A DNA stretch of 32,000 bases from Candidatus Hermodarchaeota archaeon (GCA_048886185.1 JBHLKY010000001.1:210001-242000); one strand, 5' to 3'. Shown: positions 4,699 through 30,185, counted from the first letter of the stretch. The notes: generated by a model not told the origin, from the sequence alone. A program made the numbers and translations.

Positions 4699-5238
4699 TT
4701 GATCTTAAATACTTATTTAATGGAGTTAAGAAGGTTTAATAATCAAAGAGAGGAAGAAAAGTTAATGGGAAAAGCTACGGAGAAAAGAACAACTGAAAAA
4801 ATCCAGAAGAAGAAACCAAAAGCCCTTGTTGTAACTGAAGATGAATTTCTTAAATTAAGACCAATCATAAGTCCATATGTGTCTCAAAAGAAAAAAACTG
4901 CTGATGATCTACTATTAGAACTTGATTTACGCGAATTTAAGAAAAGAAGCATTATTAGAAGATTTCTTCCCACTCCTGATACCAAGAAAATCCTTCTTGA
5001 CAAGTTAGGAATGGATGTTTTTCTGTTATGTGATGGAAAACGTAAAGTCATAGATATTATAGAGATTTTTCAAGAAAAATATCGTTTAACATCTACTGAA
5101 ACTAAAATTTCCATAAAGAAATACTTGATGAGTCTTACAGAACGTCACCTTGTCGGATTTATAATACCAGAAAAAATAGCTAAAAGAAATCTGTCCTCTG
5201 GAGAAGTTATTGAGAACATTATACTAAATATAGAATGA
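4699..5238 (+). CDS. PqqD/RRE-like small protein (true start may be ATG 4720 or 4765)
   Basis: C-terminal LDKLGMDVFLLCDGKRKVIDIIEIFQEKYRL..ETKISIKKYLMSLTERHLV matches the PqqD/RRE winged-helix pattern (L...G..vw.lcDG..tv..i...l...y......d...fl..L....li). Confidence 0.75.
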   Translation: MILNTYLMELRRFNNQREEEKLMGKATEKRTTEKIQKKKPKALVVTEDEFLKLRPIISPYVSQKKKTADDLLLELDLREFKKRSIIRRFLPTPDTKKILLDKLGMDVFLLCDGKRKVIDIIEIFQEKYRLTSTETKISIKKYLMSLTERHLVGFIIPEKIAKRNLSSGEVIENIILNIE

Positions 5239-5273
5239 TAGTCAGAATCTTATTAAACAAAATTGTATTTTGA

Positions 5274-6221
5274 TTAATTTGGCAAATTAGCTTCAATTGC
5301 TAATTTTGTCATATTTTCTATTAGATCTCTAATTCTTACTTCAATTTTTCTGTTTGTAGAGAATATAATGCAATAAATGTCGTTTTTCTTTGAATTCAAC
5401 CATAAATAGGTTTCTAAGTATGTATTTCTAAGATTCAGGGGGATTCTCTTCTCTACTGTATGTTCGTTCTTCCAGGCAACTGTTTTTTTCTTATAAATTA
5501 ATTTTGTGAAATTTTCGGGACTATAATTCGTGGGGATTCCAGGAAGATGCTTCTTGTAATAACCTTTATACCAATCAGGGATCTCTCCGACATCTGAAAC
5601 TTTTTGATCAGCGAGACCAATACGATAAGCTAGAAAATCCAAATCTTCATTATAGAGATGAAGAAAAGTAAGTCCAATTAAAAAGTCCTTTTTTCTCAAG
5701 TTCATATTAAGATATGGAGAATAAATTTGAAGATTAGGTGCTGTCCACATTGAAAACTTACTTTCAGGATGGCAGTTAATCTGGGAGATTATATTCATTA
5801 TCAAAGGTTTTTCAACAGATTTCTCCTTTCTGGCAAATTGAGCTGGGCAAATGATTAGTCTTTGAGTTTGATCGCAGATCCAGACTACAATATATCCTTG
5901 AATCTTTTCATTCTCTAATTCCCAATAAATATACTTTGCTTTATGCTCATTAACTTTTCTATCACCCTCGGTTCTTATTTTAATCTTTTTACTTGATTTT
6001 TTTAGGGTTTCAAAATAATTCTTGATAACCTTACTCAAATCTGGAGTATTTTTATCAATTTTGGCCCAGCTAACCTCCAATTTTTTCTCCTTAGCATCAC
6101 GAAATCCAAAATAACCTGTTTTTTTCTTCTGTCTCTTCTGTCTTTTTTTTTCAAAAATCATTTGCCATTCAATTGGAACATTGATCAGGAAATATTGCCA
6201 ACCGAATGTTTGAGTTTTCAT
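5274..6221 (-). CDS. Conserved hypothetical soluble protein, possible PsbP/Mog1/DcrB-like fold
   Basis: Long ORF. Likely start ATG 6221 (MKTQTFGWQYFLINVPIEW); the F..f.i.vP..W pattern recalls PsbP-like N-termini. No signal peptide. ORF track extends it to 6275. Confidence 0.6.
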   Translation of the reverse strand: MKTQTFGWQYFLINVPIEWQMIFEKKRQKRQKKKTGYFGFRDAKEKKLEVSWAKIDKNTPDLSKVIKNYFETLKKSSKKIKIRTEGDRKVNEHKAKYIYWELENEKIQGYIVVWICDQTQRLIICPAQFARKEKSVEKPLIMNIISQINCHPESKFSMWTAPNLQIYSPYLNMNLRKKDFLIGLTFLHLYNEDLDFLAYRIGLADQKVSDVGEIPDWYKGYYKKHLPGIPTNYSPENFTKLIYKKKTVAWKNEHTVEKRIPLNLRNTYLETYLWLNSKKNDIYCIIFSTNRKIEVRIRDLIENMTKLAIEANLPN

Positions 6222-6579
6222 CTTAATCCCATTGAGAAAATTAGAAGTATTTATAGTCGTTGTCTCAAAAATCATGATGAGGACGCGGTAAATTGCTAAT
6301 CAAGGCTATCTCGCTTTATACTTCTTTTAACATTGATGCAAGAGGAACTTTCAAGAAGGGCTTCACTACTAGGGGGGAGGAGGATCTGATAATTTAAACT
6401 GTATTTTATTGCTTCATGTCTTCTAGTTTTATAAATATGAAAAATAGGAAAAAAGTACATAATAAACTTTAGGAAAAAAAGGGAAACTATCAAAATACAG
6501 AGTCAATTTCAGAGAATAATTATTAAAGAAATTAAAAAAGCATAAGCAGTTATATTTAGAAGTTTTCATTTCATCCATG

Positions 6580-6591
6580 TTCAAATTTGAA
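6580..6591. promoter_or_regulatory. Perfect 12-bp palindrome TTCAAATTTGAA downstream of a TATA-like box
   Basis: TTATATTTA at 6550-6558; the palindrome lies about 20 nt downstream, just before ATG 6602. Confidence 0.35.
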
Positions 6592-6601
6592 GGAAAATTA
6601 T

Positions 6602-6973
6602 ATGTCTGAATCGGAAATCCAGTGTCCATGTGGTCAATATATCGAAGATTATAGCAAATACTTACTTCTTCACTTAAAAAAGGAGATGGGAGAGATTGAT
6701 ATCTTATGTCCTAATGAATTCTGTTATTTGAGAGAACTCGGATTTTTAAAATTCCACGTTGACACTAATGGAAAAATTAAATTTGATGTTGGTAGGTTTT
6801 ATGCTCCTTACTCAACTTGGAATGCAACAAGGATTACTGAAGAAGCAACAGTAAAAATACTTAAACAACACCTTATAGATATTACTGAAAAACTTGTTGA
6901 TTGGGTTAAGATAAGAAAGGGTGTTCTTAAGTTACAAGAGGAAATAAAAGAAAAACTGGAGGTTTCAACCTGA
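6602..6973 (+). CDS. Small Cys-rich putative Zn-binding protein
   Basis: QCPCG and ILCPNEFC give four Cys. First gene of the 6602-9051 operon; its stop overlaps the next start. Confidence 0.7.
   Translation: MSESEIQCPCGQYIEDYSKYLLLHLKKEMGEIDILCPNEFCYLRELGFLKFHVDTNGKIKFDVGRFYAPYSTWNATRITEEATVKILKQHLIDITEKLVDWVKIRKGVLKLQEEIKEKLEVST
6958..6963 (+). promoter_or_regulatory. Shine-Dalgarno GGAGGT for mini-FtsX CTG start
   Basis: GGAGGT lies 6 nt before CTG at 6970. Confidence 0.7.
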
Positions 6974-7572
6974 GTCTTGATCTACCTGATCCTCATTTTT
7001 CACTTTCTGAGGTAATATATTTATCATTTGCAAATATTCGACGGAGATTTTTACGCTCTGTAATTACTGCATTGGGTATTATCTTGGGAATTACTTTTAT
7101 GTCAGCACTTCTAACTAATTCCCTGATTTTAGGATTAATGCAAGCTGAAACTGAAGTGGAAGCTTATCAATTCTGGTTAGTTGGTATATCATTGATTGTT
7201 TGTTTTGGTGGGATAACAAATTCCATGTTGATGGCTGTGAATGAAAGAGTAAAGGAAATTGGAGTCTACAAGTGCATTGGCGGATTGGATGGTCATATTG
7301 TACGATTATTTATTGTAGAAGCTTTATTTTTGGGAGCACTTGGAGGATCAATAGGAGCTATTGTAGGTTTAGGAATGGGTTTGCTAATCAATCTAAACCG
7401 TTTTTCACTAGATGAATTAACAGCTCAAATAACGGCAAATCCACTTATTTTCATATCATTATTTGGTGTTTGTCTTTTCATTGCGCTTTTTCTTACTGCT
7501 CTTGCAACATTTATACCTGCAAGAAGAGCAGCGAATTTATCTCCAGCAGAAGCTTTACGATATGAAAATTAA
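6970..7572 (+). CDS. Mini FtsX/MacB-like ABC permease lacking a large extracellular domain; probable CTG start
   Basis: The frame upstream of TTG 7072 reads LSLDLPDPHFSLSEVIYLSFANIRRRFLRSVITALGIILG, a MacB-type N-terminal helix plus TM1. FtsX core: NSMLMAVNERVKEIGVYKCIG...FIVEALFLGALGG...PARRAANLSPAEALRYE. Confidence 0.88.
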   Translation: MSLDLPDPHFSLSEVIYLSFANIRRRFLRSVITALGIILGITFMSALLTNSLILGLMQAETEVEAYQFWLVGISLIVCFGGITNSMLMAVNERVKEIGVYKCIGGLDGHIVRLFIVEALFLGALGGSIGAIVGLGMGLLINLNRFSLDELTAQITANPLIFISLFGVCLFIALFLTALATFIPARRAANLSPAEALRYEN

Positions 7573-7587
7573 TCTAGTTGATGATTT

Positions 7588-8310
7588 ATGAGTCTTGAGG
7601 AATATGTTGTAGAAATTTCGGATGTTTTTAAGGAATATCAATTAGGAAAAGTCATTATCCCAGCACTACAAGGCATTTCATTCAAGATTTATCGTGAGGA
7701 ATATGTATCTATAATGGGTCCTTCAGGCAGTGGAAAGAGTACATTGTTTAATGTGATAGGAGGCCTTGATACAGTCACTAGCGGTGAAATCTACATCGAC
7801 CAAGTAGATATTGCTGAGCTTGACGCATACGAATTAGCTTGGCTTAGAAACAGAAAAATCGGTTACATATTCCAAACATTCAATTTACTGTTAGCTTTCA
7901 CTGCTCAGGAGAATGTAGAAACCCCAATGGTTTTTGCTGGAGTCCCTAGAGAAGAAAGGAGGAAAAAATCTAAAGAAAAACTTGAATTAGTAGGACTAGG
8001 AGATCGGTTGAAAAATAAACCTGGACAGTTATCAGGAGGGCAACAACAACGTGTTGCTATTGCTCGAGCGTTAGCTAACGATCCCGCCATTGTTCTAGCA
8101 GACGAACCAACTGCGAATCTTGATCTAGTTACTGGATTGGAAATAATTGAGCTGCTAAGGAGATTAAACACTGAACAGGGTACAACAATAATAACAGCAA
8201 CTCACGATCTTAAAATGATTAATATTAGTGATCGAATTATATGGATTCGTGATGGGAGTGTCGATCGGATTGAGGATCGTGCAGATGTACAAGTAAGTGC
8301 AATATCTTGA
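7588..8310 (+). CDS. ABC transporter ATP-binding protein, MacB/LolD family
   Basis: Walker A GPSGSGKS, Q-loop IFQTF, signature LSGGQQQR, Walker B LADEP, H-loop THD. Confidence 0.95.
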   Translation: MSLEEYVVEISDVFKEYQLGKVIIPALQGISFKIYREEYVSIMGPSGSGKSTLFNVIGGLDTVTSGEIYIDQVDIAELDAYELAWLRNRKIGYIFQTFNLLLAFTAQENVETPMVFAGVPREERRKKSKEKLELVGLGDRLKNKPGQLSGGQQQRVAIARALANDPAIVLADEPTANLDLVTGLEIIELLRRLNTEQGTTIITATHDLKMINISDRIIWIRDGSVDRIEDRADVQVSAIS

Positions 8311-8322
8311 TAGGTGAAAAAG

Positions 8323-9051
8323 ATGTCAGAGGATATCACTATAAAATTAGATGATGTTTGGAAAACATATATCATGGGAAACGAGGAAGTTCAAGCACTG
8401 AGAGGGATTAACCTTGAAATTCTTCAAGGTGAGTTTCACGTTATCATGGGACCTTCTGGGTCAGGAAAGACTACTTTTTTGAATATGGTTGGTGCTCTTG
8501 ACTTTCCTTCTATGGGAGAAGTATATTTCGAGGGCGTTCCTCTTTCTAGTCTTACTAAAAAACAATTGGCTTCTTTACGTTCTTACAAGATTGGATTCAT
8601 CTTTCAAACCTTTAACCTTGTTCCCGTAATAAGTGCTCGTGAAAATGTTTCATTACCTCTTGTTTTTCAAAGATATCCCAGAGAAGAAAGAAAGAAGAGA
8701 GCAGAGGAGATATTAAAAAGAGTTGGATTAGGAGATCGTATGGATCACACCCCAGATGAACTTTCTGGGGGACAACAGCAGCGAGTAGCTATCGCTCGGG
8801 CTTTAGCGGGTAAACCAAGTTTGATTCTGGCTGATGAACCAACAGGTAATTTAGATTTAAAAACTGGATTTCAAATTGTTGAACTATTACGTGAATTAAG
8901 CCAGGAAACTGGTGTAACAGTTATTAATTCAACGCATGATCTTAAACTAATCGATATTGCCGATAGGATCTCTTGGCTAAGAGATGGTGAGATAACACGA
9001 ACCCAACAGAAGTTAGATGTATCAATTACAAGTGCTGACGTAACAATCTAA
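8323..9051 (+). CDS. ABC transporter ATP-binding protein, MacB/LolD family (second paralog)
   Basis: [37 protein letters not shown] at 8312-8317 favours ATG 8323 over GTG 8314. Confidence 0.95.
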
Positions 9052-9124
9052 TTAGCAAAACAATTTTAAAAACACATTAAAGATAAAATGGAATATAAAT
9101 AAAAGTAGTTTAGGGGCCTAAAAA

Positions 9125-9352
9125 ATGGAAACAAATGAGATTATTGCAGTTGTACTAATAACTCTTGCATTAATAATGGCAATATTAAGTACATCAATAA
9201 GAACAGCTCTCAATGATCTTTTTGAGGGAATGGGAGTTGGTATGATAATGTATTGGTTACCTGGGGACATTGTATTATTATTTATAGAAGTAGGCATCTT
9301 CATTCTAATAATAGCAACAGCAATTTATGGACAGAGAGTTTCAAGAGTCTGA
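9125..9352 (+). CDS. Small membrane protein (two predicted TM helices), hypothetical
   Basis: 75 aa with two hydrophobic stretches. Same strand as, and just downstream of, the ABC operon. Confidence 0.55.
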   Translation: METNEIIAVVLITLALIMAILSTSIRTALNDLFEGMGVGMIMYWLPGDIVLLFIEVGIFILIIATAIYGQRVSRV

Positions 9353-9400
9353 TTAACCTACTTTTCTGGAAATAATGCACTCTTCTCCACTCTTGGTGAA

Positions 9401-11830
9401 TTAAGATCCTGACCACTCTGCCTTAATGAGAATAGCTTCCTCTTTTTCAAATTCAATTGGTATACCTCTTGTTGCTTCATCCACTGTCAATTTCAAATGA
9501 GCTTTTTTTTCAAGCTTCGGTAGAGATTTAATGTCGATAGTCCAAAAACCATTTTTTTTTCTCAACAATTTAACCTTACAGGCTAAGAATTTCGGAACTG
9601 GATTATAGGCTACGAAATTAAGCTTTAGAGGAGGAAATTTAGTTAAAGCATGAAAATCAAATAGATCCAAATTTAGGAGCATAATTTCTTGTTTATCACA
9701 TTTTGCTAAGGCTTCAAACATTAAATATAACCAAATAACCTCACCTGAACCATAAATCTCCCTACCAATTACACCTGTACGAGAACCTTTTGGGAATATT
9801 TCTTGAGATTTTGAAAAATGAGGAGGTGTTTCAAGCATTTCAAGATCTTCAAAAGGAATGAATTTACAAGGAGTTTCGCGACGGGGTGGATATATAAATT
9901 CTTGATGTAAAACATTTGAGAAGTAGTAGAAGCTATTTATTCTGATAAGATTAAAAAATTTAAGTAATCCATTAATAGGGAACTTCATTCTACTTGAATT
10001 TATGATAGTCTTGAGGAAAATTAACCATGGATATGTAGATTCGAGGTTTTCTTTCATTGCTGGATATCTAATACCAACACATGCCATTACTAAGCCTTTA
10101 GTTCTACGTTTTCCTTTCCAATTAAACGAATTATCGTCATACCAGTAGAACATTCGTAGTTCATTAAGAATATTAAAAAATGCACTTTTTATATAGAATT
10201 CATCCCCAGTAATTCGATATAATTCTGTTAATCCTGCTACACCATAAGCAATTTCTAGTGGCTCCCAGAATAATTCATCTGGGGAGAATTTCATAAGTTT
10301 CTTTGCTGATTTTTTCGCTTCTCGAAGGAATCGATCCTCCCCAAATAAGTAAAAAGACTGAATCATTATATACAAATAAATGCCTAAGCAGGCAAAGTTT
10401 TTAGCTTTCATTTTCCAGAGAATATCTTTTTCCCCCCTGGCTTTAATTAAGGCTTTTTTCTTTTTATGGTCTGAATCAAGTTCATAGTTTAAAGGGCTAA
10501 ATGAAAAGGGATCATAAAAAGCAGTGATCTCATAATTATGTCTTTGTACGAATCTTATTGATTCATTAACCATTTTTTTAAGACTAGAAATATAATTAAA
10601 ATGAATAGGAACCAATGGAAGTAACCGAATAAACCAAGCAAATCTAGTAATAGGTTCAAAAAAGTACCAAGAATCGCCAATTGAGTATTTTGTTGGCTTA
10701 ATGATCCTAATACTGTGGAAATTATCATACTGAATATTATTATATAGGAAATTGGAATTAGGGTCAATAAAACTTTGGAGAGACTTACTGGCGCGTTTAA
10801 TATGATTCAATTGAGCCTCATCGTTGTGGAGTTGCAAGTACAGTATCCATGGAGGTAGTACATCGAAAAATGTCATTGTTTCAAAGGTATTTATTTTACC
10901 TATTGTTTTTCTACGTTTAAGCTCTGATTTATCAACCACATACGCGTGATATTTTGGTGAATTTAGATCCACCCAGCAGAGTTCCTCTTTCATAAGATCA
11001 TTAATGCAACCTTTGCTAAATTTCCACCATGAAAGATTATTAGAAGGAAATTGTGTATAACCGGAGACCAATTTGAAACATCTTGAGACAAGAGCTACTA
11101 CTGCCTCCCATTTACTTGGTTTTTTTTCCCTATAATTTTGAGATAAAAAGAAGTCAAAAGTCATTTCAAATTTCGCTGGAATTTCTACTTGTTTTGGAAG
11201 TGGTATTCTGTTGAGTAAACCAAATGAACCATCAGTTTTTGTTCCACATTCATATATTGAAAATCTTTCAACAGTTTCAGGAGACATCCAATACATTTTA
11301 GATATATCTAAAAAGAAAAAAGTTTCAATTCTTGAATCAGGATTCCACACATAAGCTGCAGGCATATCATTAGATTTCCATTCATCTGTGGATGGTGTAT
11401 GTCGAGTTGGTTGATTAATTGTAACTGCTGCAGGGTCATTGTATTTAGGTAAAAGCCTCATTTTAATTTCAGGTGCTGTGTTATGGAATTGAACTTTTTC
11501 GTTGAAAACTACTTTTATTCGAATGTGAAACCATGGGTACGTTTTCGCATTAACAAAAATATCCATGAAAACTTCTATACCCTTTATTTCAGATTTATTT
11601 TCAGAAAATACATGAAATGTATCATCTGTGCGTAACTTCTCAGTTATTTTCACTGAATTTATGGTAAAATGATCTTCAAGCGAGATTAGAGGTAATAATA
11701 AGTTTTCTTGCCATTTAGAAGGCGTAAGCACTGAAAAGATTGTAAAAATTGTACCCTCATTACGCGTTAATGAAATCTTTTGCCCTTTTATCTTAAAATG
11801 AATTTCGTCCTTGATTTTCAGTTCCTCCAT
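9401..11830 (-). CDS. Hypothetical soluble protein, putative (alpha/alpha)6 glycosidase-like fold; paralog of 26673..28565
   Basis: 809-aa ORF with no signal peptide. Shares DSWYF, PAMKEN.ES, LIRINSFYYF, FIPFED, GREIYGSGE.IW.YL.FEAL and YNP blocks with the 630-aa ORF. The fold is inferred. Confidence 0.65.
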   Translation of the reverse strand: MEELKIKDEIHFKIKGQKISLTRNEGTIFTIFSVLTPSKWQENLLLPLISLEDHFTINSVKITEKLRTDDTFHVFSENKSEIKGIEVFMDIFVNAKTYPWFHIRIKVVFNEKVQFHNTAPEIKMRLLPKYNDPAAVTINQPTRHTPSTDEWKSNDMPAAYVWNPDSRIETFFFLDISKMYWMSPETVERFSIYECGTKTDGSFGLLNRIPLPKQVEIPAKFEMTFDFFLSQNYREKKPSKWEAVVALVSRCFKLVSGYTQFPSNNLSWWKFSKGCINDLMKEELCWVDLNSPKYHAYVVDKSELKRRKTIGKINTFETMTFFDVLPPWILYLQLHNDEAQLNHIKRASKSLQSFIDPNSNFLYNNIQYDNFHSIRIIKPTKYSIGDSWYFFEPITRFAWFIRLLPLVPIHFNYISSLKKMVNESIRFVQRHNYEITAFYDPFSFSPLNYELDSDHKKKKALIKARGEKDILWKMKAKNFACLGIYLYIMIQSFYLFGEDRFLREAKKSAKKLMKFSPDELFWEPLEIAYGVAGLTELYRITGDEFYIKSAFFNILNELRMFYWYDDNSFNWKGKRRTKGLVMACVGIRYPAMKENLESTYPWLIFLKTIINSSRMKFPINGLLKFFNLIRINSFYYFSNVLHQEFIYPPRRETPCKFIPFEDLEMLETPPHFSKSQEIFPKGSRTGVIGREIYGSGEVIWLYLMFEALAKCDKQEIMLLNLDLFDFHALTKFPPLKLNFVAYNPVPKFLACKVKLLRKKNGFWTIDIKSLPKLEKKAHLKLTVDEATRGIPIEFEKEEAILIKAEWSGS

Positions 11831-12060: not shown

Positions 12061-12077
12061 TCAGGCTTGTGATTTGT

Positions 12078-20593: not shown

Positions 20594-21276
20594 TAAAGAG
20601 CTTCTTTCTCAATTCTTTTTGTAACTTTTCTAATATAAATAGATATAATATCAAAAGCTTCAATAATGGAATCTAGAACCTTCTGATATTTTCCTTTCAA
20701 AATAATATGCCCAAGATATTTTTCAAGATTAATATTCCAGATAATTTCACTAGGATTGTTAAAAATTTCTTTAAAGTGGATACAATATTCATCAAGCTTA
20801 TTTGTGGCGATAGGTTGCGAAAAAAGAGTAATTTTTAAGGCGTCAGGCATAATAGTGGAAATCATTTTTCTGAGAGATTCGTCTTGATATAGATTTTCCA
20901 CTAAATAATCAGATACAACAAGATTAGGAATTTCCTTTTGTAAATATTTCAGGAAATGATGTGACACTACTTGATAATTTTTCCTAATTAATCCTTTCCT
21001 CCAAATTTCACACTCAAGTCCTTTTAATCGTTGAAATACTGGAATCAGACCATTTGAGAAATCTTCTTTGTCAACTATTATGACTGAGGCTATAAATTGC
21101 CATGTTATATCAACTGAAAATGATAATCGATGTTGTCTGAATAAAATTGAATTAAAATGATATTTTTCATTTGGAATTAGAATGCTTGCACCGAGGTTTG
21201 AAAGCTCCCATTTTCCATATTTTGATAAATATTTCGCAAATGGGACAAGTAATCCATCAGAATATGAGTTCACCAT
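20590..21276 (-). CDS. Hypothetical protein
   Basis: Long ORF (track extends to 21351; ATG 21276 preferred). Convergent stop overlaps the OPT-like gene stop at TTAA 20590-20593. No motif recognised. Confidence 0.6.
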   Translation of the reverse strand: MVNSYSDGLLVPFAKYLSKYGKWELSNLGASILIPNEKYHFNSILFRQHRLSFSVDITWQFIASVIIVDKEDFSNGLIPVFQRLKGLECEIWRKGLIRKNYQVVSHHFLKYLQKEIPNLVVSDYLVENLYQDESLRKMISTIMPDALKITLFSQPIATNKLDEYCIHFKEIFNNPSEIIWNINLEKYLGHIILKGKYQKVLDSIIEAFDIISIYIRKVTKRIEKEALY

Positions 21277-21496: not shown

Positions 21497-23716
21497 ATGA
21501 AAAATATGAGCTTCTGGATCATGTTTTTGCTATCTTTTAGTATTTTGTCTATTCAACCCAGTAATGGAATGTTGAACATATTTTTAAATTATTCTGATAA
21601 TTCTGATATTTCTTTAAAGACTACTCAAACTAATATTTATAAAATTGATCTTCAGGTCACAGCGCCATCAGGATACACATTATCTGGTAATACTCCGATT
21701 ATTATCAAACTAACAACACTTGCTGATGAATTTCCTGTTTCTGTTGACGTTTTTGGTCTAGATACTCCAGATCCTTCAGATGATCTCAAATGGTCAGCAG
21801 TTTATATTACTTATGACGAGGAAATAATTCCTAGTCAAGTAGACGATATAGACAGTCAAGTAGGATATTCTGAAGATGATGAATTATTATTTCAATTACC
21901 AGAGTCGTTAGAGCTTACAAGTGGGGAAAGTGCCTCTTTCTCGATCTTTTTAGGAACTCTGGAAACAAATTTACCTGATCCAATCTTTCCTGAAGCGTGC
22001 ACTGTCTACGATTATACGAAATATACTCAGGTGAGGGAATATTTCGGTGCTGATATGCTGAAAAAAGCCTATTACATCGAAAATAGTAAGATACAAGCTG
22101 CAGCTTTAGTTGATGCTGCTTGGAGTTCTGGAGGAATTTATGAATTATCCGTACTTGGCGAGGAGGGGAATTCACGGTGGGATGCAATTAAACAACGATT
22201 CGACCCAAGTTGGGAAGCGTGGAAATGGGCTCGTTTTGCCACAGTTGAGCAATTTATCGAATTAAATGATAAAGCTGGGACTAATAACTTTTTCATACCC
22301 AATCCTGAAAGGTCGATTATACAGGGGCCAGTTCGTGCACGAATTCAAATGCAATCAATACCTCCATATGGCAAAGCTTCTTCAGTTTGGGGTACAATCC
22401 CTGGAGTCTACGGTTTGGTAACATACGAACTTTTTGCAAACCTACCTTACCTTGATTATACTTTGGCAACAACTGGGCCTAACGCTGCCGCAAATCCGAA
22501 CTTGATCATTGAGCTTCAAAATAGAGAAAAAGCTCCTGGAGGACAATATAGTCCTTATAAAAGTGTATATGTACCTGGAGATGGATGGAGGCCAAGAAAT
22601 CCTGATGATCTATTAGTACATAAAATCTTACCTTCAGATTTTTCTGAATCGTGGTATCTAGAAAAACTAGCACCTGGGGAAATTATGTCCCCTTACGAAG
22701 AAAATTCTGATAAATTAGGATTTGGGTGCATCTTTGATATGAATGGATTGACAAACATCACGTATCAAAAAGCTTCTGAAGACATGAAACTGATGTATGA
22801 TCCATGTGAATTGCCATTAAATGCTCGATATTTTCCTTTTGATGTAACTATCACCCAAGATGCAATAACCTATATGGAAGATAACTTCCAAGAATGGAGT
22901 CGTCCTGATCCAGACTTGGATATATCTGTCTCAGTAGTAACTGCACTCCCCTTCGAATATGTAGGTGTTAGTCGTCCTCATGTTTCTTTTAATAATGATA
23001 CAGCTTTATTACAAATTGAGAATATTACAGCAATGTCAACTGAATATGGAATTATTAATGATACAATTGAATCTACTCGTACGTACAAAGTATTGGTTGC
23101 TAAATCGAAGGAAGAAACTGGAATTGAAGGAGACCTGTCTTGGAATTCAACGACGTTAACATGGGAAGCTCATGATGTCAGTCTTGCCTCTTTATCTCGT
23201 GATATTGCTTATGTTGTTGTGGCATATTTCCAGGTTGGTGACATTTTAGGGATAAGTCCTTATTCTAAATCCTTCCCCGAGATCCCCGACACTACAGCTC
23301 CTCTCATTAGTAATATTATTCAAAGCCCTCCTGCTGAAGCAATAATTCTTTCTGCTGATTCCGTGAATGTTTCTGCTATGGTAACTGATGATACAAAAGT
23401 CGAATCAGTTATTCTAAGCTATAACAATGGTACTGCTATATGGACCAATATCACAATGACTTATGGATTCGGTGTTTATACAGCTACAATCCCCCCACAA
23501 GCAGAAGGGTCAACTATTCAATATCAAATCTATGCTTATGATAGTGCTGGAAACGCAAATGTTTCAGAAACATTCTCTTATGAAGTGTCAATTGAATACC
23601 ACCCAGGCCAAGGTATAATACCATTTTTAGGAGCATCTGCCATTCTAATTGGTGCTGTTATCATTGCTTTGAAAACAACTAGTATGCATAGGCAGAAATA
23701 CGATGAAGTGGAGTAA
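21497..23716 (+). CDS. Secreted, C-terminally anchored surface protein; DUF4861-like core + Ig-like domain
   Basis: Signal peptide, IPSQVDDID..DELLFQLP, GPVRARI, Ig-like DTTAPLIS..YQIYAYDSAGN, C-terminal TM plus basic tail, many sequons. Confidence 0.72.
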   Translation: MKNMSFWIMFLLSFSILSIQPSNGMLNIFLNYSDNSDISLKTTQTNIYKIDLQVTAPSGYTLSGNTPIIIKLTTLADEFPVSVDVFGLDTPDPSDDLKWSAVYITYDEEIIPSQVDDIDSQVGYSEDDELLFQLPESLELTSGESASFSIFLGTLETNLPDPIFPEACTVYDYTKYTQVREYFGADMLKKAYYIENSKIQAAALVDAAWSSGGIYELSVLGEEGNSRWDAIKQRFDPSWEAWKWARFATVEQFIELNDKAGTNNFFIPNPERSIIQGPVRARIQMQSIPPYGKASSVWGTIPGVYGLVTYELFANLPYLDYTLATTGPNAAANPNLIIELQNREKAPGGQYSPYKSVYVPGDGWRPRNPDDLLVHKILPSDFSESWYLEKLAPGEIMSPYEENSDKLGFGCIFDMNGLTNITYQKASEDMKLMYDPCELPLNARYFPFDVTITQDAITYMEDNFQEWSRPDPDLDISVSVVTALPFEYVGVSRPHVSFNNDTALLQIENITAMSTEYGIINDTIESTRTYKVLVAKSKEETGIEGDLSWNSTTLTWEAHDVSLASLSRDIAYVVVAYFQVGDILGISPYSKSFPEIPDTTAPLISNIIQSPPAEAIILSADSVNVSAMVTDDTKVESVILSYNNGTAIWTNITMTYGFGVYTATIPPQAEGSTIQYQIYAYDSAGNANVSETFSYEVSIEYHPGQGIIPFLGASAILIGAVIIALKTTSMHRQKYDEVE

Positions 23717-23748
23717 TAAACACTTCAAGTAAGATTTCTGAAATTTAA

Positions 23749-23755: not shown

Positions 23756-23781
23756 CATCACATTTTTAATAAGAGAATTGA

Positions 23782-23804
23782 TACCCATATTGGAAATATG
23801 GGTA
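23782..23804. repeat. Perfect 10-bp inverted repeat
   Basis: TACCCATATT-GGA-AATATGGGTA between the two DUF4861-like genes. Confidence 0.7.
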
Positions 23805-23868
23805 AAATTTATCACAGATTTTAATTCTATAATTAAGTTTAAAAATCAATCCAGAAGAAGTTGAATTG

Positions 23869-23892
23869 TTGTTAGAAATCTTATTCTAACAA
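23869..23892. promoter_or_regulatory. 9-bp inverted repeat, putative operator
   Basis: TTGTTAGAA-N6-TTCTAACAA downstream of TTTAAA (23838) and upstream of ATG 23918. Confidence 0.45.
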
Positions 23893-23917
23893 TCACAAGT
23901 ACTATGTGGAAAGTAAA

Positions 23918-25396
23918 ATGAATAGAAGAAAAAATACTATCTATATGTTTGCTCTATTTCTTCCTTTGTTTTTCTCCGTATTGATAGCCCCGACTATCGT
24001 ACGTGCTGCTGAAGGAAAAAAATCCGCGATAATTACTATCACGGCAGGAGAAGACGGGATAATTGCAGATACTCCAATTATCATTGAACCAGGAGTATTA
24101 CCCGAAGGAATAGAGAACCTACAAACAGCGATTGTTTATGATGGTGATACAGCATTACCCACTCAGGCAGATGACTTGGATGGTGACGATGAGATTGATG
24201 AGATTGTGTTCCAACTCCCTGAAGATCTCGATGCAGATGAGGAAAAGAAATTTTCCCTCTATGTCTTAGATGAAGGAGATGATAATGGTCAAGATCCAAG
24301 TGCCTCCATTGATGCGGAATTTGATGAATATAATGCATCTTATAGCGATTGGCTTCCATCAACTTACACTACAGGTTATTCCAATGCGTCTGGAAATGCT
24401 CCTTTGGTAGATGAAGTTGGTAATGTCACCTGGATTGAAACTGATTGGGCAGTTATGTGTGTGTACATCTCATCTGGATGGCGTAAGAGTGCATTCAAAC
24501 ATATTTACATGAAAGACGAACAATGGGATGTAGGTATGGCTAAATGGGATCCATGGTCCGACTGGCAATTTCAATGGACAAGAGTATTCTGGGAAGCTGA
24601 CAATGGTTGGCACGACGGTAATGATTTTAAGAATACCTCTGATACTGTTGAAATGCTTAAAGTTGGCCCAGTTCGATGTGTACTACAAACTAAATCAGGA
24701 ATTGGTTATAAAGGAGATTTTGGAATTCAAGATGATCTCCGTGCGCTCAGAACATTTACTTTCTATAGTGGCTTCCCTGGTATTCACCAGAATATTCGTT
24801 TAACTGGTGGAGATGAAGATGAAGCGTCAGAAAGTATGACTGACCTGTATGGTGGTCCTCTGCAATTTACTACGAAATTCCTTGATTTCAGTACGGACAC
24901 CTCTACGAGTCCATGGTCAACTTTCCCAGATAGTAATGGTTTCAACATGGTTTATGCCCTAGGCACCCCAAATGAGGCTGGAAACTCTAATCGTGAAAAT
25001 CCTGATGAACAATTCCTAAATTTAACTAAAATGACAACGACCTACTTTGGGATGTATAGTAGTGCAACAAAGAATGGATACATGATTAACTTCGCTCTTG
25101 GTGAAAATGCAACTACATTTATCAAAGACCACGTTACATCTATCGATTGGTCTGATGGTGAGATTGTGGTTAAGCAATCATACGAGAAATTCCCATTAGA
25201 AGGAATTAACCGTGTTTATGTACCATTCAGCAAGGCTACTAATCCTAAAACTCAGATGGACACTCTAAATGGGTATTGGACTGTCGATTATGACATGGAG
25301 ACATCTAAACCAGCTCCAGCTCCAGGTTTTGAGCTTGTCATAACACTTGTGACTGCTGCGGCCATCGCAATCATTTTACGTAGAAAAAGAGGATAA
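23918..25396 (+). CDS. Secreted surface protein, DUF4861-like, with PGF-CTERM sorting signal
   Basis: Signal peptide, LPTQADDLDGDDEIDEIVFQLP, GPVRCVL, C-terminal PAPGFELVITLVTAAAIAIILRRKRG. Track start is GTG 23906. Confidence 0.75.
   Translation: MNRRKNTIYMFALFLPLFFSVLIAPTIVRAAEGKKSAIITITAGEDGIIADTPIIIEPGVLPEGIENLQTAIVYDGDTALPTQADDLDGDDEIDEIVFQLPEDLDADEEKKFSLYVLDEGDDNGQDPSASIDAEFDEYNASYSDWLPSTYTTGYSNASGNAPLVDEVGNVTWIETDWAVMCVYISSGWRKSAFKHIYMKDEQWDVGMAKWDPWSDWQFQWTRVFWEADNGWHDGNDFKNTSDTVEMLKVGPVRCVLQTKSGIGYKGDFGIQDDLRALRTFTFYSGFPGIHQNIRLTGGDEDEASESMTDLYGGPLQFTTKFLDFSTDTSTSPWSTFPDSNGFNMVYALGTPNEAGNSNRENPDEQFLNLTKMTTTYFGMYSSATKNGYMINFALGENATTFIKDHVTSIDWSDGEIVVKQSYEKFPLEGINRVYVPFSKATNPKTQMDTLNGYWTVDYDMETSKPAPAPGFELVITLVTAAAIAIILRRKRG
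25322..25396 (+). other. PGF-CTERM archaeosortase-type sorting signal
   Basis: PGF + hydrophobic helix + RRKRG at the extreme C-terminus, the tripartite PGF-CTERM architecture. Confidence 0.8.
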
Positions 25397-25400
25397 ATAA

Positions 25401-25440
25401 ATTCCCTCCTCCTTTTTTCTTTTTTTTTGATCTCTCTCTT
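25401..25440 (+). terminator. Pyrimidine/T-tract terminator between convergent genes
   Basis: CCTCCTCCTTTTTTCTTTTTTTTTG directly after the PGF-CTERM gene stop. Confidence 0.55.
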
Positions 25441-25473
25441 CTCAAAGCTTATTGTTTTGAAGCTGCTCGTATT

Positions 25474-25704
25474 TCAACTTTTTTTGTTAATTCTATTATG
25501 AAGGATAATAAAAATCTCATTCCCTTTATTGCTTTTTTTAAGAATTTCTTTAGTTTCTAACTCCTCAAGGGCTTTAAAGAAATATAAATTGGCCAATTTC
25601 GTCTTTTTTTTCAGTTCTAGAAGAGAAAGATACCCGTTACTTTCGGAAAGAATTTTCCTGATTAGCTTTCGATGTTCTTTCAGTAAATCCGAGGTTAAAA
25701 CCAT
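25474..25704 (-). CDS. Small winged helix-turn-helix protein
   Basis: IRKILSESNGYLSLLELKKKTKLANLYFFKALEELETKEIL..K.NEIFI fits a wHTH pattern. Lies 35 nt downstream of GH130 on the same strand. Confidence 0.55.
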   Translation of the reverse strand: MVLTSDLLKEHRKLIRKILSESNGYLSLLELKKKTKLANLYFFKALEELETKEILKKSNKGNEIFIILHNRINKKS

Positions 25705-25739
25705 CTGTTTTCACTATTAAAATGGGATTATTTTATTAT

Positions 25740-26648
25740 TCAGAATGATTGAAACAATTTTGTCTTCTCTATCGTAGCAAGCCCGATACATTTGTCTGCT
25801 GCTCCATAATAGACAAAATATTTGTTATCTTTTTCCACAACACCACAAGTGAAGCAGACGTTTGGTACATCTCCTAGTTTTTCGTAGTCTTCTTCAGGTG
25901 TAAGAATAGGATCTTCAAGTCGGTTAATGATAACACTCGGATCTTTCAGATCAAGAAGTAGCACACCTAGACTATAATGAAATTTTTTGTCCACTCCGTG
26001 ATAGAATTCCAACCACCCTTGTTCTGTGAAAATCGGTGGTGCACCAGCCCCAACTTTTAGATCCTGCCATGAATTTTTAATAGGTGAGAAGAGCTGCTTA
26101 TGACCAGTCCAGTTTTTCAGATCTTTGGAATATGCAATCCACATGTGGGGTTCTGGAGCGCGATGAATAAGGACATATTGACCATTAATTTTCTGTGGAA
26201 AAAGAACACCATCTTTATTCCTATATTCATTGATTATGGTTCCATGACGCTCAAAGGATTTAAAATCGGTTGTTGAGGCGATACCAATGTGATAATCAAC
26301 GTCTCCTTTTGGTACAGGAGTTCGTACTGCGGTGTAAGTAATGTAATACTTGTCTTCAAGATATGTTATTCTTGGATCTTCCACACCGTATTTTTCAAAA
26401 TCCTTTTCTGGTTTCATAGCCGGTTTTGAGAATGTTTGGAATTTATATCCATCTTGACTCTTGGCTAAACCTATGGTTGAAATATATGTTTTGTAATTTC
26501 CTATTGCACGGTAAAGGAGTAAAATTTCACCTTTAAATTGACATGCTGCACAATTGAAGACAGCTTCTTTTTCCCAGGCATGAGCTGGATTTGGTTTTAT
26601 CACGGGATTCTTGTTATAACGAACTAACCTCATTTTCATCTTCACCAA
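25740..26648 (-). CDS. Glycoside hydrolase family 130 protein (beta-mannoside phosphorylase-like)
   Basis: AVFNCAA, LLYRA, GVEDPRIT, NKDGVLFP, IHR, KVGAG.PP, FYHGV, Y.LG..LLD..DP, GDVPNV.F.CG, YYGAAD. Confidence 0.92.
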   Translation of the reverse strand: MVKMKMRLVRYNKNPVIKPNPAHAWEKEAVFNCAACQFKGEILLLYRAIGNYKTYISTIGLAKSQDGYKFQTFSKPAMKPEKDFEKYGVEDPRITYLEDKYYITYTAVRTPVPKGDVDYHIGIASTTDFKSFERHGTIINEYRNKDGVLFPQKINGQYVLIHRAPEPHMWIAYSKDLKNWTGHKQLFSPIKNSWQDLKVGAGAPPIFTEQGWLEFYHGVDKKFHYSLGVLLLDLKDPSVIINRLEDPILTPEEDYEKLGDVPNVCFTCGVVEKDNKYFVYYGAADKCIGLATIEKTKLFQSF

Positions 26649-26672
26649 TATTATTTTCTCTAGTTTCTTCTA

Positions 26673-28565
26673 CTACCTTTTAATAATTTTTTTGTGTGAG
26701 AACATTGAATATAAGATTAATACAGTTAATATTGCCATAGAGCTGATAATAAATAACACAATTGCTAGTGAATCCGGTGATGGTGATGTTGTCTGAGGTA
26801 GCGAAGAAGAAGATGTAAAATCAACAACTCCTGGGTTATAAATGAAGCTCACTAGACTAGATACATTAATCGTTAAGTATGCGGATCCTCCAGGTGGCAG
26901 TGTTATATTGAACGATTCTTCAGGTTGGAACTTACCAAGTAAGCTTCGATTAGCATACAGCGTATATGGACCATTTAGTTGCTTCAGAGTAAATGATAAT
27001 GTTTTTTCTTTGTTATAAGGATTAAAGACAATATAACCTCGATTTTCAGCAGAACCAGGATATTCTTTGTCAAAAATATTTAAATTAATTATTAGTGCAT
27101 TTCTATCAGAGGATTCTCCTAAAGCCTCAAAAAGTAAATATGACCAAATAGTTTCACCTGCTCCATATATTTCCTTTCCATTATACCCAGTGAAATACCT
27201 AACTGATTCATTTTCATATTCTCTTACTGCATAGTAATCAATGTCTTCATAAGGAATAAATTGGAGTGATCTTGGACCAAAGTCTCTTTCCCAAGCGTCA
27301 GGAATGTTGGGAGAGAAGAAATAGAAATTTTTAATTCGGTTTAAGTTGAGAACTTTCAATGGTTCTTCTGCGTTAAATTCAGGGACGTTGCCATAGAGAT
27401 ATTTCAAATAAGCGGTCCAAAACATGATACTCTCTCCATTCTCTTTAAATGCAGGAGCGTTAATCCCTCCTAACTCGGAGGGATTATAATATGGAGAATG
27501 TAGACCATCTCTCCAACCAGATGGTAACCATTCACTTGTTTGGGGATTGAAATTTACTAATGCAGTTTTCCCCTTGTTATAATATACCATTTGTTCTTGA
27601 GCGTAAAAAAAGTCCATGGAGAGTCTTACAAAGTCTACCGTTGAATTAATCAAATCAGAATATTCAATCATCTTCGCTGATGCAGCAACAGCTGCAGCAA
27701 GTTCTTGTGGTTCATACAAAGTCATAAATGGTGGAGTTACTTTTCGCAAAGCAATTAATGTCGTTTCAGCTTCTTTCAAATAAGATATATCTTGAGTTAA
27801 TTCATAAGCATTGATTAAACTATAAGCTAGGAGTCCTGCTGTGCAGTAATTTACTGTATTATAACCAAAAGCCTCCTCTTTATTCAAATTAACAAATTGA
27901 GGGAAGAGATAATTAAAATTATGAGCCATCTCAATTCCTGAGGATAAACTACCGAAATATGGATTTCTTAAACTAGATATCCCAGAAATCATGAATAGAT
28001 GTCCATATTTTAACACTGAATTCTCCATGAAGTACCAAGAATCATGCTTGTTTTCACCTGGGCGGTTTGTAGCTTGTTGAGTTTGTGGATTATAGTACTT
28101 TGGTAATTCATCTATGAATTCTTTAATCAAATTTTCTCTTGTTTCATCTGGATGTAATTGAATGTATCTATACATTGGCCACAATACATCCATGGAAGCC
28201 ATCAATTCTGTTATTTCCCTAGTTCTATCTTCTCCTCCCCAACCGTCAGTTTTTTTGACATAGGGTCTAAAACCTGTCACATTTATAGAGGTTTCATTTA
28301 TCCAACATTCATCAAAAATTAAGAGTTCTTCAAAACACTTTTCTGCATAGTCTGACCAAGAGGTTGTATTTTCAGGAAATTCATCATATCTTGGTAATGT
28401 AGCCAGATTTGTTTTAGTAGCTACTTCCATTTCCTTCCAATTCTTTTGAAAGTTCTCAATTTTAATCAGGATTGGATTTTGACATAAAACTAGACCAAAA
28501 ATTGGTAAAATGATAATATACAGCAATCCCACTATAATGATAAATTTAATTGCTTTTTTGGCCAA
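26673..28565 (-). CDS. Secreted, C-terminally anchored hypothetical protein, putative (alpha/alpha)6 glycosidase-like; paralog of 9401..11830
   Basis: N-terminal signal/TM; HDSWYFMEN, PAFKENGES, FIPYED, GKEIYGAGETIWSYLLFEAL; Ser/Thr/Pro linker + TM + HKKIIKR tail. Confidence 0.7.
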   Translation of the reverse strand: MAKKAIKFIIIVGLLYIIILPIFGLVLCQNPILIKIENFQKNWKEMEVATKTNLATLPRYDEFPENTTSWSDYAEKCFEELLIFDECWINETSINVTGFRPYVKKTDGWGGEDRTREITELMASMDVLWPMYRYIQLHPDETRENLIKEFIDELPKYYNPQTQQATNRPGENKHDSWYFMENSVLKYGHLFMISGISSLRNPYFGSLSSGIEMAHNFNYLFPQFVNLNKEEAFGYNTVNYCTAGLLAYSLINAYELTQDISYLKEAETTLIALRKVTPPFMTLYEPQELAAAVAASAKMIEYSDLINSTVDFVRLSMDFFYAQEQMVYYNKGKTALVNFNPQTSEWLPSGWRDGLHSPYYNPSELGGINAPAFKENGESIMFWTAYLKYLYGNVPEFNAEEPLKVLNLNRIKNFYFFSPNIPDAWERDFGPRSLQFIPYEDIDYYAVREYENESVRYFTGYNGKEIYGAGETIWSYLLFEALGESSDRNALIINLNIFDKEYPGSAENRGYIVFNPYNKEKTLSFTLKQLNGPYTLYANRSLLGKFQPEESFNITLPPGGSAYLTINVSSLVSFIYNPGVVDFTSSSSLPQTTSPSPDSLAIVLFIISSMAILTVLILYSMFSHKKIIKR

Positions 28566-28677
28566 TATCTATTATCCTCAGCGTTTCTTCATTATTTTAT
28601 ATTTCTAAAATCTAATAGAATAGATGAGATGAATTTTAATGCAATTGAAATTAAAACAATCAAATCAAGATTAAATT

Positions 28678-28696
28678 TATTGTTATTATAACAATA
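28678..28696. promoter_or_regulatory. 8-bp inverted repeat, putative operator
   Basis: TATTGTTA-TTA-TAACAATA upstream of the 630-aa gene (minus strand). Confidence 0.35.
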
Positions 28697-28823
28697 TTTC
28701 CTTAATTAAATTTTAGATGTTTAAGCTCAAATAGTTAAAATTGATTTTAATTATTACTGAATAAGATAGGATTCTAATTATCTAGTTCAGATAAGATATT
28801 CAGAAATTAATTAAATAGATTGT

Positions 28824-30185
28824 TTATAAACTATTGAATTGCGGAAGTGATTGTTTAAAAATCTCTATATACTTATAAAATAGCTTTTCTGCTAAGTCAA
28901 GATCATTAATCATCGGAAATAAAGCAAAGGCCTGAATTCCAGCCTCGATGTCTCCATGAACAGATGATTTAGTAATTAACTTCGAAATTGAAATCTCTCT
29001 CTGACATAAAGTTGAGATTGACTCTGGAAGCCTACCAACTGATACGCCCAAACCACCTCTTTTATTCACTATACAAGGAATTTCAACTATTGCATCCATT
29101 GGTAAGTTTTGAATGGCTCCATTATTCTCAATATTCAACGCAGGTTCGTAAAATGAAGAATCAGTATATATTTCGGTTATTAAATTCGCAAGTCGTTCAG
29201 CAGGATCCATCTTCAATTTTTCAATCCCCATTTTTCCACTAATTATTTCTTTTATGGTCTCCCAATTCTTTGCCTTATTTTGTAGATTTTCGTCAAAACC
29301 AAAGTGGTATAGATTATATTTATCCCAGTTCTCTTTTCGTGCTGTATAGGGAAGATATTCTGAAAGATGTGTTTCACCTGAAACAGGCAGAAGTCCAAAT
29401 ACTCTAAAAACATGTCTTGTTAAAGCTTCATAACTAGGAGGTAACTTATCTATATTTTGATGGATAAGAGGATAAATGTCTTCTCCATTTGAATTTCTTC
29501 GAACTTCTAGCATCCATGTAAAGTGATTTAAGCCAGCTGCCAGGACGTTATATTCATCTAAGGCTAAATTTCGATATTCATGATATTCTAAATGTTGATT
29601 GTTTTTAATCCCTAGATCTTCGATGAGAATGCGGCCTAAGATGTAAAATCCATACCAATATTGGTGGCAAAAACTTATACAATTGATACCTGCATAATCT
29701 TTTGCTGCATAATGAATCCTCGATAAAGGATTAGTAAAATTTATCAACCATGTATCGGATGCAAAATCATGGATGTCATGGAATATTGGCATAATAGCAG
29801 CGAGGTTTCTAGCAGTATGGCCAAACGACCCTGGGCCACCATTTTCCGCATAATGCCAGATACCAAATTTCTTAGCGATCTCGAAGTCTCTTCGCCAAGT
29901 TTCCTCACGATTAACACCAATGGATAGGACTACAAAATCAGCATCTTCCAAAACTTTTTTTCGATCAGTTTCAGCAAATAGTTTTACTTTAGATTTGTAA
30001 CGCTTTCTTATCACTTTAGCTAAAGACAAAACTAAATTTAGAGTCTCTTCATTGATATCGACCATATATAGAGAAGCATTTTGAAGTTTCGGATCCGACA
30101 ATATACCATTTAACGTCACAAAACAAAAATTTGTGCTTCCTGCTCCTATTACTACAATCTTTGGCTCATTTGTCAAAGAAATCAC
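28824..30185 (-). CDS. Glycoside hydrolase family 4 (NAD+/Mn2+-dependent; alpha-galactosidase/alpha-glucosidase-like)
   Basis: KIVVIGAGS, ADFVV, GGPG, INFTNP, FCH, AGLNHFTW, NNGAIQNLP.DAIVEIP. Confidence 0.93.
   Translation of the reverse strand: MISLTNEPKIVVIGAGSTNFCFVTLNGILSDPKLQNASLYMVDINEETLNLVLSLAKVIRKRYKSKVKLFAETDRKKVLEDADFVVLSIGVNREETWRRDFEIAKKFGIWHYAENGGPGSFGHTARNLAAIMPIFHDIHDFASDTWLINFTNPLSRIHYAAKDYAGINCISFCHQYWYGFYILGRILIEDLGIKNNQHLEYHEYRNLALDEYNVLAAGLNHFTWMLEVRRNSNGEDIYPLIHQNIDKLPPSYEALTRHVFRVFGLLPVSGETHLSEYLPYTARKENWDKYNLYHFGFDENLQNKAKNWETIKEIISGKMGIEKLKMDPAERLANLITEIYTDSSFYEPALNIENNGAIQNLPMDAIVEIPCIVNKRGGLGVSVGRLPESISTLCQREISISKLITKSSVHGDIEAGIQAFALFPMINDLDLAEKLFYKYIEIFKQSLPQFNSL

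Follow-up and report, generated by a model that had tools for sequence, protein, structure and literature searches.

MacB-type units, which are among the ABC (ATP-binding cassette) systems of type VII, have no substrate channel and pass ATP-driven movement to an outer domain, and FtsEX and other type VII systems transmit a conformational change without transporting a substrate. To our knowledge, every type VII ABC system characterised so far is an exporter or works outward. Characterised members of the OPT family (TC 2.A.67) are importers, and the known OPT proteins work alone, on a proton gradient. Here we describe a locus in which genes of both kinds stand together. It occupies positions 4699 to 30185 of a 32,000-nucleotide stretch (G000:C1:210001-242000, hereafter the window) of the 4.84-Mb, 96%-complete genome of a Candidatus Hermodarchaeota archaeon, and its core encodes a small FtsX protein (mini-FtsX), two MacB/LolD-type ATPases, a 1488-residue protein with an M28-like and an FtsX-type part (the giant), and two OPT-like permeases, one on either side of the giant. 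This combination of components matches no described transport system; in the literature nothing was found under the names DUF6785 or DUF6784, the labels of one of the permeases, and nothing relevant for FtsX together with M28 and OPT. Type VII ABC systems are thought of as outward-acting or as switches only, and OPT proteins as solitary; a conserved union of the two, in which exchangeable receptor cassettes share a motor, would, if true, be a new principle of membrane transport. An initial annotation of the window had read the locus as an uptake system in which the FtsX/ATPase module energises or gates OPT-like channels to import glycans or glycopeptides. Gene order and phyletic pattern strongly support two parts of that interpretation, namely that mini-FtsX and ATPases pair with the giant and that the giant is coupled to two OPT-like permeases, while the import of glycans stays a matter of probability.

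Cassettes and their putative motor

The core genes form two plus-strand operons. In the first, a Cys-rich 128-residue protein, predicted to be cytoplasmic (6587..6973) and whose stop overlaps the start of the next frame, is followed by mini-FtsX (6970..7572, 200 residues; FtsX, PF02687, E 5e-18), ATPase 1 (7588..8310; ABC_tran, 2e-35) and ATPase 2 (8314..9051; 52% identical to ATPase 1). In the second, which we call the cassette, permease A (12069..14219, 716 residues; DUF6785 and DUF6784, PF20581 1e-38 and PF20580 1e-8), the giant (14216..18682; M28, PF04389, 1.4e-11; FtsX, 2.3e-10; MacB_PCD, 2e-4, under the Pfam cut-off) and permease B (18692..20593, 633 residues) succeed one another with a 4-base overlap at the first junction and a 9-base gap at the second. 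At the upstream end of the locus stand a plus-strand PqqD-like gene (4699..5238) and the divergent, minus-strand gene of p333 (5274..6221). Genes were called from an open reading frame (ORF) listing and from Pfam and NCBIfam scans of the window, in which every gene listed in the initial annotation is an open frame at its stated place; none of the core proteins has a model of its own in NCBIfam. Homologues of the window proteins carry the names Heimdallarchaeota or Hodarchaeales.

In the archaeal and bacterial species genomes of GTDB, relatives of the giant were found at 320 places, and its C-terminal half alone matches 1081 clusters (50% identity) at E<=1e-30. Full-length relatives, at 25-35% identity, are present in many groups, among them the archaeal Bathyarchaeia, Brockarchaeota, Thermoprotei and Desulfurococcales and the bacterial WOR-3, Planctomycetales, Sumerlaeota, Desantisbacteria, Victivallales and Armatimonadota, as well as many Desulfobacterota, of which some are in culture. 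The best 80 loci, many of which end at contig edges, were taken for ORF calling and labelled with profiles made from the window proteins: the family of the 633-residue permease is present in 69 of them, the DUF6785 permease family in 63, a MacB-type ATPase in 36, mini-FtsX in 25, p333 in 21, p253 (an accessory described below) in 16, the PqqD-like protein in 15 and the Cys-rich protein in 11. When only the 38 loci with at least 6 kb on each side of the giant are counted, both permease types are present in 31, one in 4 and none in 3. Within cassettes, consecutive genes mostly overlap or are less than 60 bases apart, and the order DUF6785-giant-OPT is also seen in Pfam-annotated neighbourhoods of Bathyarchaeia, Thermoproteota and a WOR-3 bacterium. 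The statement in the initial annotation that a similar gene set recurs in other archaea and some bacteria is therefore correct, and the co-occurrence of the components that it set as a test was found in both domains. That unrelated transport and sugar genes came together by chance in one genome is contradicted for the core, which recurs in dozens of distant lineages; this idea draws on the carbohydrate genes of the window (GH130, GH4, p809/p630 and DUF4861-like), which are conserved only within Hodarchaeales, and we regard it as extremely improbable.

The same conservation bears on the possibility that the ABC part is an FtsEX-like regulator, which would switch an extracellular activity (that of its own head or of a bound hydrolase), the OPT-like proteins being independent transporters that are merely co-regulated. 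The ability of FtsEX and other type VII systems to pass on conformational change fits such a role, but in phyla of both domains the giant is flanked by permease genes whose frames overlap or nearly abut its own, and so stable an arrangement is unusual for merely co-regulated proteins, which counts against a regulator; we consider it very unlikely.

Mini-FtsX is composed of an N-terminal amphipathic helix, a first transmembrane (TM) helix, a loop of ~15 residues in place of a periplasmic core domain (PCD), and TM2-4. Its frame is open from 6931, and relatives start, with ATG, GTG or TTG, at the residue of 6970, which bears out the extension to a CTG start proposed in the initial annotation. This apparent CTG start (6970-6972) may reflect either a sequencing variant or a genuine non-canonical codon; L024, the closest relative, with a giant of 91% identity, has ATG at this place. 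Both ATPases read as intact for Walker A, LSGGQ, Walker B-Glu and H-loop, and their best NCBIfam matches are LolD, MacB and DevA; likewise, the LolC/E, MacB and FtsX models match the FtsX-type membrane domains of the window. Mini-FtsX and ATPase genes adjoin the giant in Hodarchaeales, Desulfobacterota, Desantisbacteria, Victivallales and one Desulfurococcaceae genome, with two different ATPases in Hodarchaeales and mostly one in other lineages.

In Thermoproteota, mini-FtsX and ATPase are not adjacent to the cassettes. Five genomes of this phylum (G001-G005) were searched with the mini-FtsX family profile, and each holds one strong orthologue (E 1e-60 to 1e-66, 207-236 residues), clearly apart from ordinary FtsX proteins (1e-31 and weaker), with one adjoining MacB-type ATPase and far from the giants. 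The same genomes encode 8, 2, 2, 3 and 3 full-length giants, the eight being carried by a 2.1-Mb archaeal genome (G001). The p333 gene is also single-copy in each, with a PqqD-like gene beside it in three of the five. This layout, a single mini-FtsX/ATPase operon per genome facing several cassettes, is the main new result of this work. In 201 Asgard genomes, with a threshold of E<=1e-40 for both proteins, giant and mini-FtsX were found in the identical seven genomes, all from the family of the window, and one further genome gave a partial giant-like match only; related genomes are not independent samples, here and in the glycoside hydrolase (GH) census below. The exact Asgard pattern and the one-to-many layout in Thermoproteota are most simply read as a heterodimer of giant and mini-FtsX with two ATPase subunits, and it looks as if one motor operon and one adaptor pair, that of the PqqD-like protein and p333, serve several giant/permease cassettes.

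Two further observations concern the number and spread of the cassettes. On the Bathyarchaeia contig JAVZNR010000006.1 (L104), a stretch of 25 kb accommodates three giant/permease cassettes, arranged in tandem. Among the 201 Asgard genomes, the system was found only in the family of the window, in six of its nine other genomes, and it is common in Thermoproteota and Desulfobacterota; such patchy spread suggests horizontal acquisition. Elsewhere in the genome of the window, the end of contig C29 (G000:C29:41265-43453) carries another FtsX gene, whose product has an outer domain, and behind it the genes of two MacB-type ATPases. This FtsX was rejected as a second motor on account of this outer domain and of its being cut by the contig end, and the two-ATPase layout is therefore not unique to the window locus in this genome.

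The giant, the permeases and the accessory proteins

From its N terminus, the giant is predicted to consist of a signal anchor, a PA/M28-like domain, a beta-rich domain, a helical stalk, three extra TM helices, a MacB-type unit (amphipathic helix, TM1, PCD, TM2-4) and a C-terminal domain. Its hydropathy places ~790 residues outside, three TM helices at 820-892, TM1 at 941-959 and TM2-4 at ~1211-1314; the 160-residue cytoplasmic C-terminal tail is the best-conserved stretch of the family. The MacB_PCD match is clear in homologues, and the PA domain is evident both in homologues and in the predicted fold. The ectodomain model (pLDDT 89.6) resembles PA-bearing M28 aminopeptidases, the transferrin receptor and GCPII (Foldseek, E 4e-24 to 2ek8, 8acg and 6hc6), and together with the Pfam matches it bears out the PA/M28/FtsX fusion described in the initial annotation.

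The M28 active-site columns were compared across 78 giants. The catalytic Glu-Glu pair is replaced by Gly (72/78) and His (63/78), the first zinc His column holds H in 29, Y in 24 and F in 13, the bridging Asp is retained in 44 only, and the presumed last His ligand column, aligned by eye, is mostly Thr (58). H335 and D288 of the window giant are conserved in most members. As judged from this alignment, the catalytic Glu is lost and the giant is no canonical aminopeptidase anywhere in the family. The positions so replaced are themselves conserved, therefore the altered site is probably used for something, and a new binding or catalytic site is possible. In the source databases, the giant is labelled 'M28 family peptidase' or 'FtsX-like permease'; as the catalytic residues are lost, the first of these common labels needs correcting, and counts of extracellular peptidases in such genomes are inflated.

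Two relatives differ in their outer part. The genome of the window encodes a second giant of 1249 residues (G000:C2:31946-35690, minus strand), which has no PCD, the missing part corresponding to residues ~965-1208 of the window giant; this short form is also found in other Hodarchaeales. It was ruled out as a second full system, as it has no OPT-like neighbours. Searches for longer relatives returned no fusion of giant and permease, a result of little weight in either direction; the only longer protein, a 2731-residue relative (P0121), has a weak LysM-like stretch in an enlarged outer part.

Permeases A and B show no significant similarity to each other by BLASTP. When their families are aligned, hhalign nevertheless scores them as full-length homologues (99.8%, E 8.5e-28, 581 columns). 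Permease A matches DUF6785/DUF6784 and not PF03169; permease B itself has no Pfam match, and 6 of 16 members of its family match PF03169 (OPT), the best at 8e-12. A language-model Atlas sets both permeases among OPT-like and DUF6785 clusters, and permease homologues at other loci give clear OPT matches, while the profile of the permease B family found nothing significant among PDB sequences. These comparisons argue that A and B are a conserved pair of distant paralogues within the OPT superfamily. A complex prediction of permease B with residues 800-965 of the giant scored 0.17, below the mark, and counts neither way.

The PqqD-like protein of the window, predicted to be cytoplasmic, matches PF05402 below the Pfam cut-off (E 1.4e-4). 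The match extends to all 12 members of its family (best 5e-11), and the family profile matches TbiB1, a lasso-peptide recognition element of the kind found in systems for ribosomally synthesised and post-translationally modified peptides (RiPPs), at 3e-6. This makes it a true RiPP recognition element (RRE) family, and the family-wide match upholds the label of RRE-like protein given earlier. The gene adjoins that of p333 in Asgard, Desulfurococcales, Desantisbacteria, Desulfobacterota and Thermoproteota. The model of p333 (AF2, pLDDT 83), also a predicted cytoplasmic protein, has two domains. The N-terminal one has a PsbP/Mog1/DUF1795-like fold (Foldseek to PsbP, E 7e-6; to PsbP 2xb3, VIA Z 14.2, rmsd 2.6 over 141 residues), and the second is alpha/beta, with weak matches only; p333 shows no enzyme-like conservation, and its profile gave nothing significant against PDB sequences. 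The PsbP/Mog1/DUF1795 fold class includes chaperone-like binders and RREs bind peptide strands, therefore the pair looks like a cytoplasmic adaptor; by inference only, this suggests that it recognises the invariant C-terminal motif of the giants, or cargo. By Pfam, the window holds no RiPP maturases (radical SAM, YcaO, lasso protease or cyclase), and its intergenic ORFs of at least 25 residues include no candidate precursor peptide; the sole one conserved in Hodarchaeales relatives encodes a 75-residue protein with two TM helices downstream of ATPase 2 (9125..9352, plus strand), conserved at the protein level in seven Hodarchaeales loci. Two more cytoplasmic accessories complete the set. The Cys-rich protein lies upstream of mini-FtsX in the 11 loci where it is found, in Asgard and one Desulfurococcaceae genome, and p253 (20590..21273, minus strand, convergent with permease B), defined by its family alignment, is present in Asgard and Thermoproteota loci and in four of the five Thermoproteota genomes tested.

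Neighbouring genes, substrate and direction

Of the other genes of the locus, a minus-strand run holds a GH4 NAD-dependent glycosidase (28824..30185; PF02056 8e-32, PF11975 2e-33), the membrane-anchored, extracellular p630 (26673..28565; by TM prediction) and a GH130 enzyme of the mannoside-phosphorylase family (25740..26648; PF04041 5e-69). A paralogue of p630, the cytoplasmic p809 of an unnamed family (9401..11830; BLASTP 7e-34 to p630), is also on the minus strand. On the plus strand follow a 739-residue surface protein conserved in Hodarchaeales loci only (p739, 21497..23716; signal peptide, C-terminal TM anchor and a distant DUF4861-like N-terminal region) and a DUF4861-like surface protein (23906..25396; PF16153 4e-8), whose end (25310-25396) reads as a PGF motif followed by a TM helix and a basic tail. 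We take this PGF-CTERM-type anchor, found here in an Asgard genome, to be the signal that marks archaeosortase A substrates. The three anchored surface proteins announced in the initial annotation (p739, the DUF4861-like protein and p630) are thus present, GH130 and GH4 have, as it stated, no signal peptide (neither has a hydrophobic N-terminal or TM segment), and by Pfam and NCBIfam the window indeed holds no solute-binding protein or MalF/G-type permease. The p809 family is present in nine Hodarchaeales loci and in locus L005; its profile gave nothing significant against PDB sequences, LanC-like proteins appearing at E 0.02 only, and p809 is a lineage-specific accessory and possibly a glycan-active enzyme. 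Just past GH4, positions 30316-31947 encode a helical protein whose C terminus bears a zinc ribbon and, by weak matches to zf-RING_2 and Prok-RING_1, a RING-like finger; it is not kept in related loci. A promoter and terminator scan of the window gave counts equal to those of shuffled sequence, with a consensus unsuited to archaea. The sequencing runs found were of sediment DNA, which may have given rise to the assembly, and none was of RNA.

A classical sugar ABC importer just outside the window could have served GH4 and GH130. Neither a solute-binding protein nor a MalFG-type permease was found within 20 kb on either side; the 21 BPD_transp_1 matches of the genome are all more than 60 kb away (the nearest at ~64 kb) or on other contigs, and SBP_bac_8 has no match in the genome. 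Carbohydrate enzymes, which the initial annotation expected at homologous loci, are present at archaeal ones. In Hodarchaeales, the cassette is fixed among p809/p630, DUF4861-like, GH130 and GH4 genes. A set of 80 non-redundant proteins encoded no more than three genes away from Thermoproteota cassettes was matched to families; the 25 commonest of 106 matched families include URO-D (5), MFS (3), GH38 (2), GFO/IDH/MocA (2), MR_MLE (2) and TrmB sugar regulators (2), and the singletons include GH66, GH1, a rhamnosidase N-domain (GH78-N) and DUF6259; annotated loci also carry GH2, GH42, GH4, GH130, BNR, PfkB and sugar isomerase-type proteins. The URO-D-family genes recur beside cassettes (L003, L004, L006, L102 and L103), once with a B12-binding protein, and might encode methyltransferases acting on methylated sugars or methoxy compounds.

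These neighbours, the many cassettes per genome and the import function of characterised OPT proteins favour import, and several cassettes in a small genome fit nutrient uptake. We therefore take the import of glycans or glycopeptides to be the best reading of this locus, at about even odds, with a direction and a substrate that we infer from gene context. In such a machine, the FtsX unit of the giant and mini-FtsX would form an asymmetric type VII membrane dimer, like those of MacB and LolCDE, powered by the MacB-type ATPases. The PA/M28-fold head would serve as a receptor or a handling domain that ATP-driven mechanotransmission moves, and would bind oligomers freed by the anchored surface proteins p630, p739 and DUF4861-like. 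Movement of the core domain and stalk could then hand these oligomers to the two OPT-fold permeases, or open them; the permeases would carry the substrate, and the ABC part would capture, feed or gate without translocating. In the cytoplasm, p809, GH130 and GH4 would complete the breakdown of the oligosaccharide or glycopeptide. Cassettes sharing one motor presumably differ in specificity. More broadly, the locus may represent a new class of uptake system, in which one motor per cell, with its RRE/PsbP-like adaptor, docks interchangeably onto many substrate-specific cassettes, each made of a pseudo-peptidase receptor and its own two OPT-fold conduits, and ATP-driven mechanotransmission is coupled to secondary transport, as a main route for polymer fragments in Bathyarchaeia, Hodarchaeales and several bacterial phyla; we offer this wider proposal tentatively, as somewhat less than probable.

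Several observations weigh against glycan import. The core families, M28, OPT and RRE, lean to peptides and not to sugars, and the counts of GH genes near cassettes are raw counts, not an enrichment over a genome-wide background. An importer offers no obvious role to the four cytoplasmic accessory proteins, and the RRE with a PsbP/Eag-like fold recalls the chaperoning of exported peptides. The PCD-less 1249-residue paralogue has no OPT-like neighbour, and the evidence for a physical complex is one of genomic co-occurrence. In addition, at locus L093 (3153-20681) and 11 other Desulfobacterota loci, the machine core (mini-FtsX, ATPase, giant, DUF6785, OPT-like, a 213-residue protein, p333 and PqqD-like) forms a single long operon of overlapping genes with two GT4-type and two GT28-type glycosyltransferases, a histidine phosphatase and a DUF2334/deacetylase-like protein, a biosynthetic context that fits export as well as import.

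The first of these points would be accounted for if the same machine took up peptides, such as detrital oligopeptides or muropeptide-like fragments, the M28-like head binding peptide termini, the OPT-like proteins importing, and the RRE binding peptides or the tail of the machine inside. The M28/PA fold, OPT and the PqqD RRE are all peptide-related, and peptidase genes (M42, M3, M28 and M20) are found in the flanks of the window and of locus L103. However, no peptidase is among the 25 commonest of the 106 families beside Thermoproteota cassettes, where GHs and sugar regulators are found instead, and the Hodarchaeales cassette stands among GH130, GH4 and DUF4861-like genes; peptides are in our view an unlikely substrate.

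The Desulfobacterota operon speaks for the reverse direction. In an exporter or assembly device, the RRE and p333 would hand a glycoconjugate or glycosylated peptide built in the cytoplasm to the permeases, and the MacB-type part would move or process this cargo outside, as in MacB, LolCDE and DevCA. The outward action of characterised type VII ABC systems and the likeness of the RRE and PsbP/Eag-like fold to holders of peptides before export agree with such a device. On the other hand, up to eight cassettes in a 2.1-Mb archaeal genome, and three in tandem on one contig, the catabolic exo-glycosidases and TrmB regulators beside archaeal cassettes, the lack of a candidate precursor among the intergenic ORFs of the window and the importing nature of characterised OPT members all speak against export, which we judge improbable.

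The family is large. It is multi-copy in Bathyarchaeia, sediment archaea that are abundant but whose uptake of nutrients is little understood, and it also reaches an Asgard lineage; its presence in cultured Desulfobacterota makes it genetically testable, cultured carriers being Desulfogranum japonicum DSM 18378, Desulfopila sp. IMCC35008 and Desulfovibrio sp. 7SRBS1.

Comparison with known systems

The PqqD-family RRE encoded with an ABC system recalls lasso-peptide and other RiPP systems. It differs from them in lacking genes for a radical SAM protein, YcaO, a lasso cyclase or a leader protease, the partner of the RRE here being a PsbP/Mog1-fold protein. The outer head shares with the PA/M28 pseudo-peptidase receptors (the transferrin receptor and, by analogy, nicastrin) the fold, the PA insert and a site that is not that of an aminopeptidase, but here this domain is fused to an ABC membrane unit, and in a prokaryote.

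With the SusC/SusD loci energised by TonB-ExbBD, and with the shared ATPases of the MsiK/MalK type, the likeness is one of logic only: many outer modules depend on one remote motor, and substrate-specific modules lie beside glycoside hydrolases and regulators. There is no homology to SusC/D or TonB (no SusC-type TonB-dependent transporter or SusD-type binding protein is among the Pfam matches of the window), the archaeal hosts have no outer membrane, and the putative motor is a MacB-type unit driven by an ATPase. Like the OPT/Yellow-Stripe-like transporters (TC 2.A.67, PF03169), the permeases are polytopic proteins of ~630-720 residues, and some members match PF03169; those of the window are very divergent, falling below PF03169, and are paired paralogues apparently tied to an ABC mechanotransducer.

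In its membrane unit, the locus resembles the type VII ABC systems (MacB, LolCDE, FtsEX, DevCA and BceAB), with which it shares the FtsX-type four-helix unit with its N-terminal amphipathic helix, the periplasmic core domain between TM1 and TM2 of the giant, and the LolD/MacB-type ATPases; a heterodimeric membrane pair, here deduced from the genes, would further liken it to LolC/LolE. In contrast with these systems, mini-FtsX has no outer domain, and the giant bears a ~790-residue PA/M28-like head, three extra TM helices and a conserved cytoplasmic C-terminal domain. To these are added two permeases of the OPT superfamily, a single motor operon for several giants, and the RRE and PsbP-like accessories.

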